Position numbers and translations under genes: made by a program. Shown here in pieces: positions 26,013 through 36,914 of a stretch of 64,000 nt of DNA (its first letter is position 1; every line of letters starts with the position of its first letter). Where the stretch lies: positions 9,367 through 73,366 of the forward strand of contig CAZLEI010000004.1 of NCBI GenBank assembly GCA_964558505.1, given 5' to 3'. Below the pieces are notes generated by a model. It saw only the letters and a list, made by a program, of their open reading frames with translations, was not told the DNA's origin and searched no databases. The DNA comes from an uncultured Methanomassiliicoccales archaeon (GTDB lineage Archaea > Thermoplasmatota > Thermoplasmata > Methanomassiliicoccales > Methanomethylophilaceae).

Positions 26013-27125
26013 TTACTTCAACGGTGTACGTTCGACCTCCAGGCCGTCCGCTGTGGGGTACGTTTCCGACAGATAGCATTTGTAAGGCAGCTCCCCCGCG
26101 AGCTCCTCGAGTATCCATGGCGCGACCGCCAGGCAACCCTTCTCGGGCAATGCGGCCATGAGCTCTGCGGGCACTTCGTACGTGCCGGACAGGAGGTCCA
26201 TGGCGGCATCGAGGTCGTCAGCGTACAGCAGCCCCCTTATCAGGGTGCCGTCCTCGGTGACTATCTCATACTCTTCGGCGATGTGCTCGGCACGGCGTAT
26301 GAGACGGTTCCTGAGCTGCACGCCGTCCTTGAATGCAGAAGAGCAGAAATGGACGTTGGCCTTCCGATGCCGTTTGAGCATGGCGTGGGCCACTTCTTCC
26401 GAGCCGGAAACTGCCGACGAGATCTCGTCCTTCAGTCCGTAACCATGCTCTCCCATCATGTTCCAGTTGCTCTCGGAGAACTCCAATTCGTTGAGGTTGA
26501 CGAACCTCACGCCTGCCGACTCGGCATATTTTATAAGCGCGTCCAGGTCCGCATCGTGGCCGGGCAGTGCGGGCACTTCGATGCCCACATCGATGCCGCA
26601 GGTCCTGACGATCTCCGCCAGCGGGGTCCTCTCCATATGAGCCCAAACATCGGGCGACGGATGGAACCTGATCTCGTCCAGTCCGGCATCGGCGACTTTC
26701 TTGACAAGTGCCGGGTCCATGGTGGACGTGTACAGATGGATGTGGTGCTCGTCGCCGAACCGCTCTTTGAGGAGGCGTATCACGCGTATCGTCCTCTCCG
26801 GACTCATGAGCGGGTCCCCGCCGGTTATGCCGGTCCCGGTGGCATCCATGGCCTCGGCTTCCGCGATGATCTCTTCGGGCGCAGTGACCTGCATCTCGTT
26901 GGCGTAGACCACGTCGCGGTCCTTCTTCTCCAACGACACCGGGCAGTAGAAGCAGCCAGTCCCGCAGATCCCGCTGACGAACAGGACCATCTTCGATCCT
27001 TTTATGCAGTGTTCGCAGCCGACGGCCAACCGGCCGTTCGTGGCAGAGCCGCAATCCATCTTCCTGATACGCATCACCGAGCAATCGTCGAACCCTTTAT
27101 TAAGAGTTGTGAACTTGCATGACAT
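26013..27125 (-). CDS. radical SAM domain protein (pyruvate formate-lyase activase-related, COG2108-like)
   Basis: CX3CX2C cluster (CGTGCFYC) within a family-typical ~370-aa protein; G-rich SAM-binding segment (TGITGGDP). Confidence 0.8.
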   Translation of the reverse strand: MSCKFTTLNKGFDDCSVMRIRKMDCGSATNGRLAVGCEHCIKGSKMVLFVSGICGTGCFYCPVSLEKKDRDVVYANEMQVTAPEEIIAEAEAMDATGTGITGGDPLMSPERTIRVIRLLKERFGDEHHIHLYTSTMDPALVKKVADAGLDEIRFHPSPDVWAHMERTPLAEIVRTCGIDVGIEVPALPGHDADLDALIKYAESAGVRFVNLNELEFSESNWNMMGEHGYGLKDEISSAVSGSEEVAHAMLKRHRKANVHFCSSAFKDGVQLRNRLIRRAEHIAEEYEIVTEDGTLIRGLLYADDLDAAMDLLSGTYEVPAELMAALPEKGCLAVAPWILEELAGELPYKCYLSETYPTADGLEVERTPLK

Positions 27126-27134
27126 GGTGAACAG

Positions 27135-27779
27135 ATGAGGAAGGACACGCGCTTGGTATTGGCATTGGATGAGACGAACGAGGAGAAGGCGATGGACATA
27201 GCCAGATCAGTTTCTCCGTACGTCGATGCAGTGAAGATCAATTGGCCTTTGGTCCTTTCCGCGGGGCCGGGGATGATCACCAAGCTCTCGAAGGAGACAG
27301 AGGTCATATGCGATTTCAAAGTGGCCGACATACCCAACACCGTGCGCCTCATCGTCGAGCAGTCGGTATCCAAGGGGGCGTCCGCGGTGATCGTGCATGC
27401 ATTCACCGGGGAGGACTCCATGACAGCCGCCGTCGAGGCCGCCGGAGATGCGGAGATATACGCGGTAACCGAGATGAGCCACCCCGGCGGGAAGATGTTC
27501 ACGGCGCTCCATGCGGAGGAGATGGCGGCGATGGGCGTCAGATGCGGCGCGGCCGGGTTCATAGCGCCTGCCACGCGCCCGGAGAGGATAGCGGCCGTGC
27601 GCTCGATAATCGGGGACAGGAAGATCCTGTCCCCCGGTGTCGGGGCACAGGGCGGCAGCGCATCGTCAGCGATATCCGCAGGGGCGGACTACGTGATAGT
27701 GGGCCGCGCGATCTACGGTTCGGAGGACCCCCGGTCGGCAGCCAGGTCCATATACGAGGAGATAGCGTCGTCCCTGTGA
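27135..27779 (+). CDS. pyrF: orotidine 5'-phosphate decarboxylase
   Basis: LALDETN…DAVKINWPL…DFKVADIPNT… conserved OMP decarboxylase blocks. Confidence 0.88.
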   Translation: MRKDTRLVLALDETNEEKAMDIARSVSPYVDAVKINWPLVLSAGPGMITKLSKETEVICDFKVADIPNTVRLIVEQSVSKGASAVIVHAFTGEDSMTAAVEAAGDAEIYAVTEMSHPGGKMFTALHAEEMAAMGVRCGAAGFIAPATRPERIAAVRSIIGDRKILSPGVGAQGGSASSAISAGADYVIVGRAIYGSEDPRSAARSIYEEIASSL

Positions 27780-27849
27780 CGCCCCCTCTTTTTATTATAT
27801 TATATTTACTCTCTCGCCCGTCCGTAAACCTATAAATAGAACTGCCCCT

Positions 27850-30800
27850 ATGAACCGCCATTCTATAGAAGCGGAGAATTCTAGAATGCGCAAATTCGTA
27901 TCTAAGTCAACCGACTCTCAAAAAGAGAGTAAAGGTCGCTCCATTGTGGGCGACGGTGGATGGTTTGGGAACAATAAGCGCCTGGTCCTGATGCTGTTCG
28001 CGATAGTATTGGTGGCCCTCTTCCTGAGGGTCTTCTATTCGTACGGCATCTCCGTGGGAAGCGGCATCGCCCTTTCCGGAGGATCGAGCGCGGAATATCA
28101 CCTCAGTGTGATTGAGAACCTGGTCGCTACCGGCCAGTTCGTCATCTCGGACCTTGCAGTCAACTACCCGTACGGCGGTCTCAACGTGTTCCCGCCGTTG
28201 ATGGACGTCATCGTCGCCCTGTTCGCGTGGATCGCCACGGCTGCAGGCGTGCCCGTCGCTACGGCGAGTGCGGCGGCTCTGTCCTGGTTCGCACCCATCG
28301 TCGGCACCCTTGCCGTTGTTGCTGCGTACTACCTCGGAGTCGAGATGTACAACAAGAAGGTCGGCGTGCTTGCTGCCCTCTTCCTTGCTGTGTTCCCCCT
28401 CATGATATCGGGAACCGTGTTCTCCAACGGGACTGAGAGCGCGTTCTACCTGTTCCTCTTCATCGGCATGCTGTTCTTCCTCGTGAAGGCCGTGAAAGCA
28501 GTCGATGCCACCGAGATGCAGGGATACAAGGCCGTTTTCGCTGACAGGGCGATACTGAAGCCCATGATCTTCACGATCATCTGCTTCGTCCTCATCGCCC
28601 TCACATGGAACGGATTCTACGCCGTGGTCCTCGTGCTCGTGGCCATAATGGTCATCCAGGCGCTCCTCGACAGGTTCAGGGGCAAGGATTTCACGGTCAT
28701 CACCATGCTCTACGCCATGGTCCTCCTGATCGGCATCTGCATCTCTGCGGCATACTACGTACCCGCAGGGCTTTGGAATGCGGTCTTCTCCGGGCCGTTC
28801 ATCGTGTCGATCATGGCGGTCGTCTTCACGCTCGCATACACGAAGGTGCAGTCCAAGCCGTGGATAATCACCATCCCCGTGTTCGCGGTCATCATCGCAG
28901 CGATCTTCGTGGCGCTCTACTTCGCCGCGCCCGCACTCTTCAACGACGTCGTGTTCGGGAACAGCATCTATGGCGGTAACCTCTTCGGGAACCTCATAAT
29001 CGCTTCCGACGGACCGACGCTCTCCCAGCTCGGGACGTACTATGGATGGGCGACCTTCTGGTTCCCCATGGCGATGCTCGTCCTCATGGCATGGGGATTC
29101 CGCAAGAACATGGATTCCAGATTCTACGTCTTCATGTTCCTGTGGTACGCCGCACTCCTGATCCTCACTTGGGTCACCGACGCCACCATGTTCCTTTGCG
29201 CACCGGTCTACGCCATAGGCGCGGCCGCACTCATCGTGAAGGTCTTGGACCTCGTCGACATACGCGGTTATTTCGCCAGTTTCAAAGGGGTCGACTTCAA
29301 ATCCTTCTGGAAGAAGCTGATAAAGCCCGCTCCCTTCATCGCGGTCCTCGTCGGAGTGTTCCTGGTGGCCATGCCCGGTGCGATATACGCCGTGGATGCC
29401 AGCATATCCAACAACGAGAAATCCGACTACAACCTCTCTGCTCTCGGTGCTGCCGGCTACTACGTCGACACCACGGATGCGAACACGATCAACAACCTGT
29501 GGAACCAGTACTCTTCGGAGATCAAGACGGGTGCACTCGTCACCTGGACCAACTACGCCAACACTGCCGCGGCCATCGGCGGGTTCCCCACCGTGACCTC
29601 CATCACCGGCGGAGGCGCATCGGCCGCATCCAACATCATGTTGGCGAACGGAAGCGCAGGCGCGACGGCGGCAATGGCAGTGCGCATGATTGAATCGAAA
29701 GGGCTCTCCGAGTTCCAGTCGATCCTCGCCGCATACCCTGATATCGACTATGCATACCTCACGACCCTGTTCACGAACGAGAAGTTCGTCAAGGACCTCG
29801 TCATCGGTGCACCCGATGTCTACGGTGCGGTATCCACATCCATAACCTTCGAGAACGCCCGCTACCTCGCGGTCGTGGAGTACCTGACATCCAGCCTCTC
29901 CGAGCCCCAGATCGACAAGCTCTACGATGCGGTCTGCGCCCAGATCGACAAGCAGATCAGCTACATAGCGGTCAACGGATCGATGCTCCACCTCTACTAC
30001 AACGACGGATCGTCGCTGTCCACGATGGCGTACCTCAACGATTACGCATTCTCGACGGACGGGTCCGTCACGAAGTTCTACTCCTACGGGACCTCGTCAC
30101 CCTATTACTGCACATACACGAGCGCGATGTACGAGACCTTCCTCTGGAAGTCCATCATCGGCATGTCGCCCGCTGATGTCGGCATATCGTCGGGCATCTC
30201 GTACCTCAGCTCCCTCGCACTCAGCGACGGGACGTACAAGGCACACCCCGGATACGGCCTCAGCAACTACAGCCTGGCCTACTGGCATGTCATGTACAAC
30301 GCGGATAAAGAGGCCACCCTGGCCTCCGAGGGATGGGTCGACATGGATGCGTACGAGGCCATGGCGCTTCAGGAGTCCGAGGGCGGTCTCATCAACTACA
30401 TAGCCGGAACGACCATGTTCGAGTACAGGTCCAACACCGTGACGAACACCCTCAGCGGGAAGGTCACATACGACACGGGGTCGTCCATCGATCCCGCGAA
30501 GGGGATCCAGGTCGCAGTGTTCGAGGGAATGGACACCGACGGCGACGGCAATGTCGACGAGTACATGCAGCGCTGCACCACATACACCAATGCAGAGGGC
30601 AAGTACGAAGTGTCCGTGAGCAACACGGCGGTCGGCTACAAACTGGTCTATTCCGCAGGCACGAAGACGATGACCGGCGGTGTGGAGATCAAGACGCTCT
30701 ACAACCCGGCCCTCAACGATTCGAGGCTCAGCTTCACCGTGGCGAACATCTCCATGAGCGGGCAGGTCCTGGTCAATGGCGAGAAGTACGTCACATCGGC

Positions 30801-33800
30801 TGCCGAGCCGATCACGGTGCAGATACTCGGTGCCAGCACAGGATACAAGAGCTCGGTGACGTCCGCGTCCGGAGCATTCACCTTCAACAACGTCCTTCCC
30901 GACAGCTACACCATAACCGTGGTCAAGGCGAACGGGAACACGCTCGTATCGACCACATACAAGACGCTCGAGGGACACAACTCGGGCATAGAGGTCGAGA
31001 CCGCAACCGGGAAGATCACGGTCACGGTCACCGACGACACCGGGAACACCGTCAACGGCGGCTCGGTCGTCGCCACCGACACCACCGATGGACAGAGGTT
31101 CTACGGGACCATCGAGAACGGCACGGCAGTGATACAGGTCATCCCCGGGAAGTTCACGATCAGCGCGGCGGACGGGTACTCTTCAGTGTACTCCACATCC
31201 GTCACGGTGGCATCCTCCGGATCCAAGACGGCGAGCCTCACGGTCTACAAGAGCGTCGATCTCTCGGTCACAGTTCCGACTGCCGGGATGTCCGTGACCC
31301 TGTCCGGGTCTGACGGCTTCACGATGTCCGCATCCTCCGGGAACACCACGACTGCGAAGTTCGCGGTGCCGATAAGCGTGGGTGCGGGGGTCGGGAACGG
31401 ATACACGTTCACGCTCACAGCATCCAATGGGGACAAAGCGGGATCATCGCTTCACTGGGCCACATGGACCTACTCCGGTTCGTCCACTGCGTCCGTGAGC
31501 CTTTCGTCCGCAGGCACTCTCCAGCAGGTCACAGGAACCCTGAAGGACAGCTCCGGCACCGCAACTGCTGGAACAGTGCTGTTCTACACCGCAGACGGAA
31601 AGGTCCTGACGGGATCCGCCGGCAGCGATGGCGCGATCACGGCTCTCCTGCCCTCCGGAACGTACACCATGTACGCATTCGACGGCAGCGACTCGGTGAT
31701 CCTCAAGAAGATAACGGTCGGGTCCGCCGTGCTCGCTCTCGGAGATGTCACCATGTCCGATGCACGCAAGATCACGTCCACGCTCAACTATTCCACGTAC
31801 ATGTCGTCCTCGACCAGCAAGACCCTCAGGTTCCTGCAGGTCAACATCGACGAGATCATCGTTGGAGAGGAGACCTTCTCGTTCTTCTACATGACGAACT
31901 CCTCCGGGAAAGCGATCGTGTACATACCGAGCGGCAGCTCGTGCACAGTGAACGTCCCTGCGATGTCCACGTCCGCGCTCACGATGGAAGCCCAGGCCAA
32001 CAAGATAGAGGCCGGCACTTCCAACAGCAGCAAGACGTACTCGGCCACCACGGTCGATGTCAACGTCAAATGCGGCGACGGGTACACAGTGCACCTCGAT
32101 CCGTACAGCAGCACCCTCAAGGAGGTCACCGTGACCCCCGCAGGAGTCGCTGTCAGGCCGGGTCAGTACACCGCGAAGGTCGAGGCCTCCTCCGGTTACT
32201 ACTACACCGGAACGGTCTACATCTACCCCGGAATGACCAGCATGACCCTCGACATAACACCGACAAAGGTCAACAAGGTCACCATATCGGGCCTGGACGC
32301 CTCCGATGTCGTCGATGTGAAGCCTCTCGACGGCGGCTCCAGCGTCAATGACGAAGCGGCGAAGGGCATATGGTATGTGGAATCCGGCTACAGCTACTAC
32401 TTCAAGATAACAGCGAGCAACGGCAACATCGCCTACCTCTCTGCAGACAATGTATCGGCCGATGTCACGTTCACCGGACCGGCGAAGACTGCGCCCATCA
32501 AGGTCACGGGATTCGTCGGAGTGGCCGGGACCGGAGATCTGGTCGTCGAGTACGGCGGGGTCTCGGTGCCCTTCTCCATAAAGGGAGGAGTGTACACGGC
32601 CACGTTGCCGACAGGCATCACCGGGGACATCAGGTTCACGGCGAGCGTCGCCAACACCGTCGACGGTAAGACGTACTACTTCGACAGGTCGGTCACGATG
32701 GCATCGAACCAGGTGACGGACGGTCTCGTGCTGAACCTCAGCTCCGTGGACAGCGGTGTCACCGCAGCCCTCGGCAGCACGGTGGTCAACACGGCGAACG
32801 ACATGGTCTCGTTCTCCATCCTGCTGACCAACACATCGAACTCGGCGGTCACCCTGGTGCCTTCCGGCGGAAGCGCATGGAGCAAGATATCGTTCCCCAG
32901 CGGATCCATCGTGGTCCCCGCCAAGGGCACGTACACCTTGACCGTGGCCAATGCCGTCTACACGCACGGCACCGCTGCCGGAAGCTCGTCGCTCAGCGTC
33001 AGTTTCTCGGATGCGGCAGGCAGCACGGTTCTGTCGACCACGGTCGATGCCCCCGGGATGTACCCGGCATATGCCGTCAACAGCGGTGCGGGAAGCTTCT
33101 CCAACGGAGTGGCGACCTTCGGGTTCACAGTGACCAACAACCTGGACGTCGAGCAGACAGTCCTGGTCGACGGAGGATCCGCATGGAAGACCATCGACTT
33201 CACCCTGTCCGGCGCGTCCGTGCAGGCAGTGACGGTGCCCGCGAAGGGAACGGTCACGGTCGTGGCCAATGCGACATACGATGCGGCCAAGCACGGAATG
33301 GGCGACAAGACGATGTCGGTCATCCTGTCCAGTGTGAATGGCGACAAGATGCAGACCATGACGGTCGATACCACCGGAATGATCCATTCCGCAACGACCT
33401 CGACCGTCGTGGACTCCAGCCTCGGGACCGACGCGTCCTCGGATGCGGTCAACGGATACGAGTACATGTACGCGGTGACACTGAACAACAAGGACAATTT
33501 CGCGAAGTTCGCATCGCTCTCGGTCACCGGCAACCTGTCCGGATGGTATGTGACCATCATGGACGCGGCCGGAACGACGATACTCGATGCCAACGGCGGA
33601 TCCTACAAGATCCCGGCCTTCTCCACGGAGACGGTCTATGTGAAGGTCATGTCGCATCAGGGAGCGGTTGCCGTGCCCAGTCTCACCATCGCGGTGACCG
33701 TGACGGACGGGGCAGGGAATTCGATGCCGGTCTCGACGACGAGCTCGAACATCGCGATCAGCGGCAACACTGCCACCATGACGCAGTCCGAAGGCTCCAT

Positions 33801-33963
33801 CAATGTATCGGTCAAGGACCCGAGCGCATCAGGTACCGGCATCTACAATTCGGCGGGCAACATCCCCACTGGATTCTGGATCCTGCTGGTCGTGTCGGTG
33901 ATGCTCCTGTTCCTTGTACTCTACCTCGGAATGAGAAGGGGGGTGTTCACACGCAGAAAGTAA
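27850..33963 (+). CDS. STT3/AglB-like multi-pass GT-C membrane domain fused to ~1300 aa of extracellular beta-sandwich repeats with a C-terminal TM anchor (giant surface protein)
   Basis: The N-terminal ~700 aa have about 13 predicted TM helices. The first external loop has STT3-like blocks (…AEYHLSVIENLVATGQF…NYPYGG…FPPLMDV… versus eukaryotic STT3 …DPYFNYR…WYPLGR…YPGLM…). A divergent WWDYG-position motif reads VTWTNYA. A Thr/Ser/Gly-rich repeat region follows, and the protein ends …PTGFWILLVVSVMLLFLVLYLGMRRGVFTRRK (TM plus basic tail). Start may be M13 at 27886, depending on which TATA-like element is used. Confidence 0.85.
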   Translation: MNRHSIEAENSRMRKFVSKSTDSQKESKGRSIVGDGGWFGNNKRLVLMLFAIVLVALFLRVFYSYGISVGSGIALSGGSSAEYHLSVIENLVATGQFVISDLAVNYPYGGLNVFPPLMDVIVALFAWIATAAGVPVATASAAALSWFAPIVGTLAVVAAYYLGVEMYNKKVGVLAALFLAVFPLMISGTVFSNGTESAFYLFLFIGMLFFLVKAVKAVDATEMQGYKAVFADRAILKPMIFTIICFVLIALTWNGFYAVVLVLVAIMVIQALLDRFRGKDFTVITMLYAMVLLIGICISAAYYVPAGLWNAVFSGPFIVSIMAVVFTLAYTKVQSKPWIITIPVFAVIIAAIFVALYFAAPALFNDVVFGNSIYGGNLFGNLIIASDGPTLSQLGTYYGWATFWFPMAMLVLMAWGFRKNMDSRFYVFMFLWYAALLILTWVTDATMFLCAPVYAIGAAALIVKVLDLVDIRGYFASFKGVDFKSFWKKLIKPAPFIAVLVGVFLVAMPGAIYAVDASISNNEKSDYNLSALGAAGYYVDTTDANTINNLWNQYSSEIKTGALVTWTNYANTAAAIGGFPTVTSITGGGASAASNIMLANGSAGATAAMAVRMIESKGLSEFQSILAAYPDIDYAYLTTLFTNEKFVKDLVIGAPDVYGAVSTSITFENARYLAVVEYLTSSLSEPQIDKLYDAVCAQIDKQISYIAVNGSMLHLYYNDGSSLSTMAYLNDYAFSTDGSVTKFYSYGTSSPYYCTYTSAMYETFLWKSIIGMSPADVGISSGISYLSSLALSDGTYKAHPGYGLSNYSLAYWHVMYNADKEATLASEGWVDMDAYEAMALQESEGGLINYIAGTTMFEYRSNTVTNTLSGKVTYDTGSSIDPAKGIQVAVFEGMDTDGDGNVDEYMQRCTTYTNAEGKYEVSVSNTAVGYKLVYSAGTKTMTGGVEIKTLYNPALNDSRLSFTVANISMSGQVLVNGEKYVTSAAEPITVQILGASTGYKSSVTSASGAFTFNNVLPDSYTITVVKANGNTLVSTTYKTLEGHNSGIEVETATGKITVTVTDDTGNTVNGGSVVATDTTDGQRFYGTIENGTAVIQVIPGKFTISAADGYSSVYSTSVTVASSGSKTASLTVYKSVDLSVTVPTAGMSVTLSGSDGFTMSASSGNTTTAKFAVPISVGAGVGNGYTFTLTASNGDKAGSSLHWATWTYSGSSTASVSLSSAGTLQQVTGTLKDSSGTATAGTVLFYTADGKVLTGSAGSDGAITALLPSGTYTMYAFDGSDSVILKKITVGSAVLALGDVTMSDARKITSTLNYSTYMSSSTSKTLRFLQVNIDEIIVGEETFSFFYMTNSSGKAIVYIPSGSSCTVNVPAMSTSALTMEAQANKIEAGTSNSSKTYSATTVDVNVKCGDGYTVHLDPYSSTLKEVTVTPAGVAVRPGQYTAKVEASSGYYYTGTVYIYPGMTSMTLDITPTKVNKVTISGLDASDVVDVKPLDGGSSVNDEAAKGIWYVESGYSYYFKITASNGNIAYLSADNVSADVTFTGPAKTAPIKVTGFVGVAGTGDLVVEYGGVSVPFSIKGGVYTATLPTGITGDIRFTASVANTVDGKTYYFDRSVTMASNQVTDGLVLNLSSVDSGVTAALGSTVVNTANDMVSFSILLTNTSNSAVTLVPSGGSAWSKISFPSGSIVVPAKGTYTLTVANAVYTHGTAAGSSSLSVSFSDAAGSTVLSTTVDAPGMYPAYAVNSGAGSFSNGVATFGFTVTNNLDVEQTVLVDGGSAWKTIDFTLSGASVQAVTVPAKGTVTVVANATYDAAKHGMGDKTMSVILSSVNGDKMQTMTVDTTGMIHSATTSTVVDSSLGTDASSDAVNGYEYMYAVTLNNKDNFAKFASLSVTGNLSGWYVTIMDAAGTTILDANGGSYKIPAFSTETVYVKVMSHQGAVAVPSLTIAVTVTDGAGNSMPVSTTSSNIAISGNTATMTQSEGSINVSVKDPSASGTGIYNSAGNIPTGFWILLVVSVMLLFLVLYLGMRRGVFTRRK

Positions 33964-33989
33964 CTTCAGCAATAGTCGCTCTGGCGATC

Positions 33990-34736
33990 GTGGGGATATT
34001 GGGGTTCTGCCTCATGCCCTGCGATCCCGCGGACGGAATGCACGTAGATATCAAGGGAGACGATTACGTCGTCAAGACGTCGGGATCCATATCCTACGAT
34101 ATCGTCGGATACGACAGCGCATTCGACAGCACCCACAGCTACGACTACACCGCGGCGCTCTACGACGCCGCGGGGAAGTCCCAGTCCAGTGCTGTCAGTC
34201 CCTCGTCCGGTACGATGAGCAACGGGTCCTACACGACCCTGTCCATCACCGCGCCGTCAACCGCCGGCACGTACACCCTCAAGGTGACCGTGACCGACGG
34301 GGACGACTCCAAGGTCAAAGAGGTAAGGGAGTCCATCATCAGGGTGGTCGCCCCGATCACCCTCTCTGCCACACTGGAGAACACCAGCTCCATCGCCCTG
34401 AAGAACCTCGTGGTGTACTTCATGGTCGACGGGAAGAAACTGGATGACAGCAACCAGCAGGTGTCCGTGGATGCTTTCGGGACCTCCGACATCAAATACG
34501 AGTACGTCACGTACGGACTGTCTTCCGGCGCTCACAGCTATGCCATAGTGACAGACAGCGAGACCGTGATCGATATCGTGGGCCTCGATGTCCAGAACAA
34601 GTTCTACGTGGGACAGGAGAGCTACTCCGGAGTCACCGCCATCCTCGGCGTGCTCGCAGTGATACTCTTCATCATCCTCCTGTACATCTACAGGAAGCCC
34701 GTGAAGAACTACGGCAAGCCGAAGGCCAGGCGTTAA
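33990..34736 (+). CDS. cell-surface protein with beta-sandwich (CARDB/Ig-like) domain and C-terminal TM anchor
   Basis: Begins within or just after the giant gene's end in another frame. Hydrophobic N-terminal segment (…AIVALAIVGILGFCLMPC), Thr/Ser-rich body, C-terminal …ILGVLAVILFIILLYIYRKPVKNYGKPKARR. Start is uncertain: candidates are GTG 33990, TTG 33999 and ATG 34014, and no canonical start exists upstream of the hydrophobic segment. Confidence 0.55.
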   Translation: MGILGFCLMPCDPADGMHVDIKGDDYVVKTSGSISYDIVGYDSAFDSTHSYDYTAALYDAAGKSQSSAVSPSSGTMSNGSYTTLSITAPSTAGTYTLKVTVTDGDDSKVKEVRESIIRVVAPITLSATLENTSSIALKNLVVYFMVDGKKLDDSNQQVSVDAFGTSDIKYEYVTYGLSSGAHSYAIVTDSETVIDIVGLDVQNKFYVGQESYSGVTAILGVLAVILFIILLYIYRKPVKNYGKPKARR

Positions 34737-34744
34737 ACTTCAAT

Positions 34745-34790
34745 GCCGGGGCGTCCCCCCGGCTTCAAACGATTTATTCCTTGTTTTTCG
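34745..34790 (+). terminator. hairpin (GCCGGGG-n5-CCCCGGC) followed by T-rich tract after the surface-protein gene
   Basis: Perfect 7-bp GC stem at 34745-34763, then TTCAAACGATTTATTCCTTGTTTTTCG. Confidence 0.4.
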
Positions 34791-34904: not shown

Positions 34905-34925
34905 CCATCAGCTCATGGACTGTGC

Positions 34926-35390
34926 ATGACCGAGCCTCGGGAAACAGATGCAGTGCACGATGCCGACGTCAGTGGAAGCTTGAACAACCTGATGTCGTCC
35001 TGGACCATAATCGAGCTTCGCATGATGGCATCGAGAAGCCAAGACAATGCCCTGACATTCAACAGCATACTGTACCTCGACATGATATCTTTCACCGAAG
35101 ATTGCACCGTTACGAAGCTTGCCGACATCCTCAAGGTATCGAAACCGACCGTCACATCCAAGATCAACGAGCTCGTCGATATGGGATTGGTCGTGAAGAC
35201 CCGGTCCGATACCGATGGCCGGGTCAGTTTCCTGGACCTGTCGCCGGATGTGATGTTCCCGTACGACAACGAGATCGCGAAGATCAGGCATGTCGTGGAC
35301 AAACTGAATGAGATGTATTCCGGAGAAGACCTCCTGTTATTCTGCAATATCCTGGATAAAGCATCTGAACTGCTCATGGATGATGTGTAA
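34926..35390 (+). CDS. MarR-family transcriptional regulator
   Basis: wHTH core …CTVTKLADILKVSKPTVTSKINELVDMGLVVKTRSDTDGRV… typical of MarR. Sits upstream of an MFS efflux gene. Confidence 0.85.
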   Translation: MTEPRETDAVHDADVSGSLNNLMSSWTIIELRMMASRSQDNALTFNSILYLDMISFTEDCTVTKLADILKVSKPTVTSKINELVDMGLVVKTRSDTDGRVSFLDLSPDVMFPYDNEIAKIRHVVDKLNEMYSGEDLLLFCNILDKASELLMDDV

Positions 35391-35489
35391 GGCTCATCCG
35401 AGCCTGTCCCAGGTAATATCGTGCACGATCTTGCACCATAGATAGTTAGGAAAACAAAACTAAATATATCCGAGAGATGATGAGAGCCC

Positions 35490-36914
35490 ATGACTGACGT
35501 CCTGAGGGATCCTCGTGCACAGCAGCTGCTTCTTGTAGCCGTGGTCATAGCGATGTTCATGGATGGCATGGATGGTTCCATCGTCAATGTGGCGCTCCCC
35601 GTGATCGCCGGCAGCATGGGCGTAGGCACCAGCACCGTGTCATGGGTGGTGACCATCTATTTTCTGATGATGGCAGGCCTGATATTGATATTCGGTAAGA
35701 TCGCCGACGGAGGTCATCTGAAGAAGGTGTTCATATGCGGATTCCTGATATTCTCGGTCAGTTCCCTCATGTGCGGGATCTCCACAGGGCTGGACACGCT
35801 CCTCATAGGCAGGGCCATCCAAGGGATCGGAGCATCCATGCTGGCGGCGTCCGCGATGATGATGTGCGTGAAGTACTATCCTGCGAGCAGGATGGGATAC
35901 GCCCTGTCCATAACCGTGCTCGGTGCATCCATAGGGACGGTCCTGGGTCCGACCCTGGGCGGCGTCCTCACGGAGGTGCTGTCCTGGCACTGGATATTCC
36001 TGATAAACGTCCCCATAGGTCTGGTGGCCGCGATCTTCTCGATGAAGGCCATCCCTGCAGACAGGAGGTCCGAGGAACGCGAACCCTTCGATCTCGTAGG
36101 GGCGGCCATACTGTTCGTGTCGCTGTCCTGCGGCCTCTATGTGGTGGAGACACTCCCGTCCACGGGGTTCGGCGTCTCATCGATGATGCTCACGGCCATA
36201 TGCCTCATCGGCCTGGTAGCTCTTGTGTTCTGGGAGAGGAGATGCGAGCATCCGGTGATCCTGCTATCCCTGTTCAGGATACGTGATTTCGTGTTCGTGC
36301 TCGTGGCATACCTGCTGATAAACCTGATACTGATGGGCATCCTGTACCTGTTGCCGTTCTACCTCAGCAAGGGCATGGGCTTCGATTCGATGGTCACCGG
36401 TCTGTACCTGCTGATCCCTTCCGCGGTCACATTGGTGATATGCACCAAGGCCAGCAAGATATCCGATAAGATCGGCCGCAGGCCATTCGTTCTCGTGGCC
36501 TGTGCGGCCATGCTCCTGATGACCGCGATACTGTCGGTCATAACCCCCGATATGGGGCTCTGGATGCTCATAGTCGCATTGCTGTGCTTCGGTCTCGTGT
36601 GGGGCGTGTGCGGGGGGCCAGCATCCAGCCGCATCGTGGAGAATTCACCGAAGGAGAGCCATGGCTACGCGTCTTCCCTGATGTCCTTCAGCATCTACTT
36701 CGCGGCCGCACTCGGTACCGCAGTGTTCTCGGCGCTTTTCGCGGCGGGTTCCGGATTGGGCATGATAGATTTCTCCACGATGCCGTTGGACGGATTCTTG
36801 TCCGGGTTCCATCTCGCGGCCTTGGCGGGCATACTGCTGTCTGTGATGGCACTGCTGCTGTCTGCCGTGGTCAACGAGAAGAAGAACGGGCACGGGATCT
36901 CGAAAGAGGATTGA
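35490..36914 (+). CDS. MFS transporter, DHA2 (EmrB/QacA)-like, 14 TM segments
   Basis: 474 aa, highly hydrophobic with MFS signature-like loops (…GKIADGGHLKKVF…, …GRAIQGIGAS…). Confidence 0.9.
   Translation: MTDVLRDPRAQQLLLVAVVIAMFMDGMDGSIVNVALPVIAGSMGVGTSTVSWVVTIYFLMMAGLILIFGKIADGGHLKKVFICGFLIFSVSSLMCGISTGLDTLLIGRAIQGIGASMLAASAMMMCVKYYPASRMGYALSITVLGASIGTVLGPTLGGVLTEVLSWHWIFLINVPIGLVAAIFSMKAIPADRRSEEREPFDLVGAAILFVSLSCGLYVVETLPSTGFGVSSMMLTAICLIGLVALVFWERRCEHPVILLSLFRIRDFVFVLVAYLLINLILMGILYLLPFYLSKGMGFDSMVTGLYLLIPSAVTLVICTKASKISDKIGRRPFVLVACAAMLLMTAILSVITPDMGLWMLIVALLCFGLVWGVCGGPASSRIVENSPKESHGYASSLMSFSIYFAAALGTAVFSALFAAGSGLGMIDFSTMPLDGFLSGFHLAALAGILLSVMALLLSAVVNEKKNGHGISKED

Follow-up and report, generated by a model that had tools for sequence, protein, structure and literature searches.

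The AglB-L protein of Archaeoglobus fulgidus (AfAglB; structures 3WAJ, 5GMY and 7E9S) is an archaeal single-subunit N-oligosaccharyltransferase (OST) of CAZy family GT66. N-glycosylation has AglB as its signature enzyme, which is regarded as near-universal among archaea. We have analyzed a 64,000-nucleotide stretch of DNA from an uncultured Methanomassiliicoccales archaeon (assembly GCA_964558505.1, contig CAZLEI010000004.1, positions 9,367 to 73,366 of the forward strand; hereafter the window), which carries a gene for a 2,037-aa AglB-derived protein, here called the giant, and directly behind it a gene for a small surface protein, its partner. The sequence of the two suggests, with a probability that we put at roughly 0.55, that they represent a pseudo-OST, retained as a doubly anchored, non-catalytic scaffold complex at the cell surface. 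The features concerned are collected in Table 1.

The active site of AfAglB has been described in detail. Its metal ligands are Asp47 of the first DXD motif and Asp161 and His163 of the second. Glu360 of the TIXE motif completes the site and, with the first DXD, activates the acceptor amide; alanine scanning has shown the TIXE segment to be essential. His81 and Arg426 adjoin the phosphate of the lipid-linked oligosaccharide, and the WWDYG and DK motifs bind the +2 Ser/Thr of the sequon (PMC8342417).

An initial annotation, made from the letters and open reading frames (ORFs) of the window, had taken the N-terminal part of the giant for an STT3/AglB homologue, an assignment that held. The Pfam STT3 model (PF02516) matches aa 84-355 with 36.4 bits, above its gathering threshold of 24.5, and a profile of 27 family sequences matches AfAglB (3WAJ, 5GMY) over chain residues 3-574 (E=2e-43). 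The model for the archaeosortase A system-associated OST (TIGR04154, archaeo_STT3) covers aa 47-513 with 95.8 bits, short of its 450-bit cutoff, and phmmer with aa 1-867 against PDB sequences found no match. Hydropathy places about 13 transmembrane (TM) helices at aa 45-513 and one further at aa 2009-2028. The AlphaFold2 model of aa 13-880 has a predicted local distance difference test (pLDDT) score of 74.8, and its top Foldseek match is AglB (7E9S_A, E 1e-15, TM-score 0.53, about 940 aligned columns), followed by human and yeast STT3 and PglB. The giant has the arrangement that marks the GT-C fold, 13 TM helices and then a periplasmic or luminal globular domain. A different GT-C family, which the initial annotation had named as the outcome that would overturn it, was not found, profile and Foldseek both giving AglB. 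By profile and predicted structure, aa 1-860 are a true AglB/STT3 module, AglB-like in its membrane and its periplasmic domain.

Motif columns were read from 66 members of the family to which the giant belongs, which we call degenerate, and from eight giants that we call canonical (P0067-P0074; 2,100-2,400 aa, labelled Thermoplasmata where named), all mapped onto AfAglB. The canonical giants keep GGSD, TIAE, an Arg or Lys at the Arg426 position, and WWDYG. In the window protein all five of the catalytic or substrate-binding elements tested (first DXD, second DXD, TIXE, Arg426 and WWDYG) are replaced. The Asp47 column, Asp in all eight canonical giants, holds Ser in 42 of the 66 family members and Asp in six. 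The second DXD, Asp161-His162-His163 in AfAglB and DHD in six of the eight canonical giants, has become T/N-E-Y in the family, with T195 and S197 in the window protein. The catalytic Glu360 is missing: its column, in an EL5 (fifth external loop) alignment that is less certain, shows a gap in 52 of the 66 members and holds A385 in the window protein, whereas every canonical relative has TIAE or TISE. At the position of Arg426 the family is variable and the window protein has A445, against Arg or Lys in eight of eight canonical giants. The initial annotation had recognized VTWTNYA as the position of WWDYG, correctly, since W566 lies opposite W550 of AfAglB. WWDYG, present in all eight canonical giants, is mostly W[ILM]DY[SAT] in the family and has decayed further in several lineages, for example to WMGNA in Methanomethylophilus alvi and WTNYA in the window. 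The expectation of potentially altered catalysis, drawn from this last motif, was too mild, as five of five elements are gone. The periplasmic region, home of the DK/MI and DGGK motifs, is alignable with that of the canonical giants, and the periplasmic domain ranks among the best-conserved parts of the family.

Two side observations concern the second DXD. In the window protein, N193-G-T195 (28426-28434), part of the family motif FSNGTE, forms an N-glycosylation sequon at the former active site. Among the canonical giants, some (P0069, P0074, P0219, P0241, P0244, P0246, P0252, P0274 and P0280) have N-Y-L or R-M-H in place of the second DXD; the same proteins keep Asp47, TIXE and WWDYG, and those with N-Y-L have Lys at the Arg426 position. 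By sequence, this subgroup may represent an independent alteration of the metal site.

The family is widespread within one order. A scan of one genome per GTDB species gave 71 giant loci, all in Methanomassiliicoccales and each single-copy, save one gene that lies over two contigs; the loci nearest to the window show 55% (L007) and 53% (L008) identity. A word-index search returned 74 homologues, nearly all of 1,800-2,400 aa and collinear, from M. alvi, Ca. Methanoplasma and other Methanomassiliicoccales. When 1.84 billion cluster representatives were searched exhaustively with phmmer, 499 matched at E<=1e-3. Of the best 150 of these 499, 107 reach a length of 1,800 aa or more, and the motif states show a bimodal distribution (59 degenerate, about 76 canonical); the canonical relatives closest to the window protein are 29-32% identical to it. 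The 29 relatives found with a canonical query all keep the motifs that their partial sequences cover.

The chromosomal surroundings of the giant are fixed: rpoB-rpoA'-rpoA''-L30e-NusA, a radical SAM/DUF8061 gene (-), pyrF, the giant, the partner of about 255 aa and, further on, truA, purD (-), and gatD gatE. The window has the same order plus an extra transporter gene of the major facilitator superfamily (MFS). The canonical giants, including one in a metagenome-assembled genome (MAG) labelled Ca. Methanomethylophilaceae, occupy the same slot, with pyrF on one side and a homologous partner 3'. Because slot and partner are shared, synteny identifies the window gene as positionally orthologous to a bona fide AglB, namely the giant oligosaccharyltransferase of this kind in Thermoplasmata. 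It displays all the marks of that lineage: AglB module, beta-sandwich array, C-terminal anchor and the pyrF-aglB-partner locus. The fusion of an OST to a beta-sandwich extension, seen in the initial annotation as a property of this gene, is real but not peculiar to it; the fusion is ancestral in a large Thermoplasmata giant-AglB clade, most of whose members keep the motifs.

Neighbour joining on the N-domain groups the 66 degenerate proteins in one monophyletic clade, with the canonical giants as its sister. The basal branches hold the window clade and members that retain Asp47 together with WLDYG or WWDFA. These basal members point to a stepwise decay, in which the second DXD, TIXE and Arg426 went first and Asp47 and WWDYG later. 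Ratios of nonsynonymous to synonymous substitution (dN/dS) were obtained by the Nei-Gojobori method for nine close pairs of family members; the TM domain has values of 0.15-0.31, the periplasmic domain 0.10-0.44 and the array 0.19-0.62. The giant, its degenerate module included, is under purifying selection.

A second signal was lost on the same protein. In the extracellular part of the canonical giants, the sequon N-x-S/T occurs at 1.77 times its expected frequency (1.05 for the reverse-motif control). The corresponding value for the degenerate family is 1.21 (control 1.14), and the window protein has 16 sequons against 17 expected (0.94). The joint loss of the catalytic site and the sequon signal fits an array that is no longer N-glycosylated, and the sequences suggest that this holds for the degenerate clade as a whole.

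The extension behind the AglB module was predicted as beta-sandwich repeats. A long beta-sandwich array does exist and is conserved; repeats at the sequence level were not found, as a BLAST self-comparison of the array showed none. For aa 860-2037 AlphaFold2 predicts an all-beta structure (pLDDT 80.5) of about 13 sandwich domains that closes with one long helix. Within the array there are weak Pfam matches to CarboxypepD_reg and NOMO, and the family profile matches NOMO2 (9C7V, E=2.2e-26). Foldseek with the array returned generic multi-Ig proteins only, at TM-scores of at most 0.12, and no functional lead. The array had also been called an S-layer-like module, a description that does not agree with the cultured relative M. 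alvi, which by cryo-electron microscopy has a single membrane, no wall and no S-layer (PMC10673518).

The C-terminal helix and basic tail of the giant were likewise foreseen and are conserved; their supposed resemblance to PGF-CTERM did not stand. The giant has no TIGR04126 or other NCBIfam match for this signal at E<=0.1 and no PGF tripeptide. The sequence is IPTGFW, with a family consensus of IPxGxWF, and membership among the PGF-CTERM substrates of archaeosortase A was rejected. The C-terminal TM anchor is ancestral, while the tail [KR]RGVF[STV]R[RK] is conserved in the degenerate family only. This pattern suggests that the tail stays on the protein and functions in the cytoplasm, instead of being cleaved off as a signal would be.

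The small anchored protein behind the giant, also noted at first reading, is real and conserved. It begins straight past the stop codon of the giant in another frame. Its tail RKPVKN[YF]GKPK[AS]RR (34689-34733 in the window, RKPVKNYGKPKARR) is near-invariant and occurs behind the giant gene in 58 of the 60 loci where this could be tested; the protein is otherwise 39-50% identical among the three degenerate-type orthologues that were aligned. Such conservation suggests a specific cytoplasmic binding partner for the tail. The gene is common to degenerate and canonical loci, at 24-50% identity, but the canonical-type tail is different and variable (QKPSTKKK). The Pfam CARDB model (PF07705) gives the window partner 21.4 bits (gathering threshold 22.7), there are unmarked CARDB matches in the partner orthologues of loci L004 and L005, and a partner profile run against the PDB matches a CARDB-like cell-surface protein (2L0D, E=4.5e-5). 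Neither ribophorin, OST48 nor any other OST subunit came up in that PDB search. The first canonical start codon of the window partner is GTG 33990 (248 aa). Six codons before it, ATA (33972-33974) aligns with the ATG of the orthologues, with no ATG, GTG or TTG at that place, so that the window copy either starts at a non-canonical codon, has a signal segment that is shortened or contains an error of sequencing.

The steps by which an OST may have become a scaffold can be outlined. The ancestor already combined a complete AglB (13 TM helices and periplasmic domain), about 13 beta-sandwich domains and a C-terminal anchor, and its gene stood beside that of a small, anchored, two-domain partner. 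In the Methanomethylophilaceae-type clade, to which the window belongs, the metal ligands, the TIXE Glu, the phosphate-contacting Arg and the Ser/Thr pocket of WWDYG have all been replaced, and transfer of glycans by the known mechanism would have ceased. The AglB module may now be a docking site and platform in the membrane, the arch of beta-sandwiches may contribute, together with the partner, to the coat that covers these wall-less cells, and the basic cytoplasmic tails of giant and partner may contact a cytoplasmic component.

Several observations weigh against this proposal. Architecture is what suggests the scaffold role. EL5 is aligned with less certainty than the other motifs. The sequon contrast, for which a Mann-Whitney test gives p=2.5e-6, is drawn from phylogenetically related sequences, so that the p value overstates their independence. 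The former catalytic loops have conserved motifs of the family's own: YHL (EL1), PPLMD, FSNGTE and GNS.Y...YYGW (EL5). Within these loops H84, D119, S192, G194, N371, S392, W400 and W404 are conserved in at least 85% of members and E196 in 83%. Finally, all members have W566, and 49 of the 66 retain the Asp of W-x-D-Y.

These residues could belong to a rebuilt, non-canonical active site, with the giant still a glycosyltransferase that perhaps uses another acceptor or donor, for example in non-sequon or O-linked transfer to Ser/Thr-rich surface proteins. The persistence of Asp47 in basal members and the dN/dS of the TM domain, the lowest of the three parts in most pairs, would fit such an enzyme. 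We nevertheless regard it as unlikely. The three metal ligands and the TIXE Glu have given way to residues unable to bind metal (Ser, Thr, Tyr, Ala or a gap), and the only well-conserved acidic residues left in aa 1-610 are D101, D119, D516 and D584. The one Asp remaining in W-x-D-Y is itself gone in several subclades, among them the window (WTNYA) and M. alvi (WMGNA), and sequon enrichment has disappeared.

More doubtful is the idea that a second, canonical AglB elsewhere in the genome maintains N-glycosylation, the giant being its non-catalytic accessory subunit or regulator. Some archaea do have several AglB paralogues, A. fulgidus three, according to one report (PMC3703281). The window covers 64 kb of the genome, and mid-size AglBs of unassigned taxon were among the search matches. 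On the other hand, synteny shows the giant itself to descend from the ancestral catalytic AglB, genomes have a single family locus each, and the array has lost its sequon enrichment. The window contains no second STT3 gene and no glycosylation cluster, its remainder being housekeeping genes, and word-index searches (29 and 50 matches, not exhaustive) gave no canonical AglB from named Methanomethylophilus, Methanoplasma or Methanogranum.

The view first taken of the giant, a working though divergent canonical N-OST fused to an S-layer/adhesin module, is very improbable. It draws on the Pfam STT3 match, the AglB fold and a Joint Genome Institute label on a close homologue (asparagine N-glycosylation enzyme membrane subunit Stt3), but it has to contend with the absence of all five tested elements, including a TIXE segment that is essential in AfAglB (PMC8342417), and with a TIGR04154 score far below the cutoff. 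An assembly artefact or frameshift fusion, which the initial annotation had raised as a caveat, and a decaying pseudogene can be dismissed: the frame is unbroken across 6.1 kb, homologues are collinear (74) and loci recur in genomes (71), dN/dS is well below 1 in all three parts, and both structure models are confident.

The scaffold reading has consequences beyond this locus. It is possible, and we propose it tentatively, that Methanomethylophilaceae-type Methanomassiliicoccales, including M. alvi of the human gut, have no functional N-OST, their sole AglB orthologue having been converted stepwise to a doubly anchored, non-catalytic surface scaffold that works with the partner. If so, they would provide the first clade-wide pseudo-OST, and theirs would be one of the rare archaeal lineages that do without AglB-dependent N-glycosylation. 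Across about 70 species, a syntenic orthologue of AglB has lost the tested catalytic elements while its sequence is still strongly conserved. If the loss of function is true, a whole family of methanogens from gut and digester makes do without canonical N-glycosylation in building its wall-less surface, a GT-C fold is able to persist as a pseudoenzyme scaffold, and the order of motif loss is a natural dissection of which OST elements are dispensable first. The idea is directly testable in M. alvi Mx-05, which is in culture. As conserved, single-copy and surface-exposed proteins, giant and partner are also candidate antigens or markers for rumen and gut Methanomethylophilaceae. Full-text literature searches found no account of the giant family or of a catalytically dead AglB. 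Total glycosyltransferase counts reported for Methanomethylophilaceae are 7-13, in a table with no GT66 column (PMC9723798 supplement).

Members of the family carry varied public names: hypothetical, carboxypeptidase regulatory-like domain-containing, glycosyltransferase family 39, and Stt3. In RefSeq the M. alvi copy bears only the name carboxypeptidase regulatory-like domain-containing protein, and precomputed Pfam matches to STT3 are missing for about half of the family. Genome surveys of AglB may therefore misclassify the giant either way. Bacterial titles stand on nine records that carry the archaeal locus with full synteny (L017, L027, L032, L034, L050, L052, L054, L059 and L062), the titles including Dialister hominis, Ruminococcus sp., Firmicutes bacterium, Prevotella hominis, Lachnospiraceae bacterium, Bacteroidaceae bacterium, Bacteroides ovatus and Bifidobacteriaceae bacterium. 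These records are mislabelled or mis-binned MAGs.

Giant and partner look like a single transcription unit, with a TATA-like stretch upstream and a hairpin with a T-rich tract downstream. The intergenic stretch starts past the pyrF stop codon (27777-27779) and holds two TATA-like elements, TTTTTATTATATTATATTT at about 27789-27807 and TATAAATA at 27831-27838. The second is too near ATG 27850 to serve it, and the annotated start may therefore be 12 codons too long. This element would favour as start codon Met13 (ATG 27886), a family-conserved Met from which the protein would be 2,025 aa; the true start of the giant may thus lie 12 codons 3' of the annotated one. At the other end, the hairpin GCCGGGG-CGTCC-CCCCGGC (34745-34763) has a 7-bp GC stem and the T-rich tract behind it. 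Long antisense ORFs over the giant gene (27907..29991 and 31444..33657) are the usual by-product of a G+C content of 58-60%.

Table 1. Features of the giant-partner locus, in window coordinates.
Feature	Position	Strand	Description	Basis
Promoter, putative archaeal, of the giant-partner operon	27788..27839	+	A/T-rich	sequence reading; putative function
Giant gene	27850..33963	+	2,037 aa; AglB-derived putative pseudo-OST, beta-sandwich array, C-terminal anchor	
AglB/STT3-type TM domain	27967..29409	+	aa ~40-520; ~13 TM helices	hydropathy, Pfam, profile, AlphaFold2/Foldseek
S80	28087..28089	+	Asp47 equivalent (first DXD, external loop EL1); GGSSAEYH vs canonical GGSD.YY	alignment
T195-E196-S197	28432..28440	+	second-DXD position (EL2), within family motif FSNGTE	alignment
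EL5 segment GNLIIASDGP	28984..29013	+	aa ~379-388; TIXE position	alignment
Periplasmic AglB-like globular domain	29410..30429	+	aa ~521-860	Foldseek vs full-length AglB 7E9S, alignment with canonical giants
W566-T-N-Y-A	29545..29559	+	WWDYG remnant	alignment (W566 opposite W550 of AfAglB)
Extracellular array	30430..33864	+	~13 diverged beta-sandwich (Ig/CarboxypepD_reg/NOMO-like) domains, aa ~861-2005	
C-terminal TM helix and basic cytoplasmic tail MRRGVFTRRK	33865..33960	+	helix aa ~2009-2028	hydropathy, model, alignment
Partner gene	33972..34736	+	hydrophobic N-terminal segment, two CARDB-like beta-sandwich domains, C-terminal TM helix, tail RKPVKNYGKPKARR	
Terminator-like end of the two-gene unit	34745..34789	+	hairpin, then T-rich tract	sequence reading; putative function

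The neighbouring genes differ in a few respects among loci. The MFS transporter gene (35490-36914), between the partner-adjacent ORF and truA, is absent from that place in loci L001, L003, L004 and L005 and is thus a lineage-specific insertion into the fixed synteny. The ORF that adjoins the partner (34913-35656, -) encodes 247 aa and has no Pfam match; it is 196-205 aa long in L001 and L003, and its counterpart in canonical-type loci has a weak Translin match. The radical SAM/DUF8061 gene (26013-27125, -), divergent from pyrF, is present in all loci examined, canonical and degenerate. A soluble thioredoxin of 108 aa with the motif WCGPC is encoded 3' of the partner in canonical loci (L004 17468-17794; L005 17412-17738) and is missing in degenerate-type loci. 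It was considered as an Ost3/6-like subunit on account of a weak OST3_OST6 Pfam match and was rejected, as it has no TM segment.

Four known systems bear comparison with the giant. With AfAglB-L it has in common the 13-TM GT-C membrane domain and, behind it, a globular domain in the periplasm. The window protein differs in being without Asp47, Asp161/His163, Glu360, Arg426 and WWDYG, and in having about 1,150 extra beta-sandwich residues, a second, C-terminal anchor and a dedicated partner gene. PGF-CTERM signals resemble its C-terminus in the hydrophobic helix, the basic residues after it and the Pro/Gly turn before it (IPTGFW); the giant differs from them in its conserved tail, in lacking the PGF tripeptide and in giving no TIGR04126 match. 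Like the NOMO/CarboxypepD_reg arrays, such as that of NOMO2 in the BOS complex (9C7V), it has a long, membrane-tethered string of beta-sandwiches, a generic similarity at the level of domains; the low whole-array TM-scores do not indicate a function or deeper ancestry in common. The canonical Thermoplasmata giants (P0067-P0074 and P0200-P0286; about 2,000-2,700 aa), annotated as STT3 domain-containing or carboxypeptidase regulatory-like domain-containing proteins, are alike in domain order and locus position and are sister to the degenerate family in the tree. They differ from it in keeping the motifs, most of them with DHD, in their sequon-rich arrays and unconserved cytoplasmic tails, and in the thioredoxin gene past the partner.

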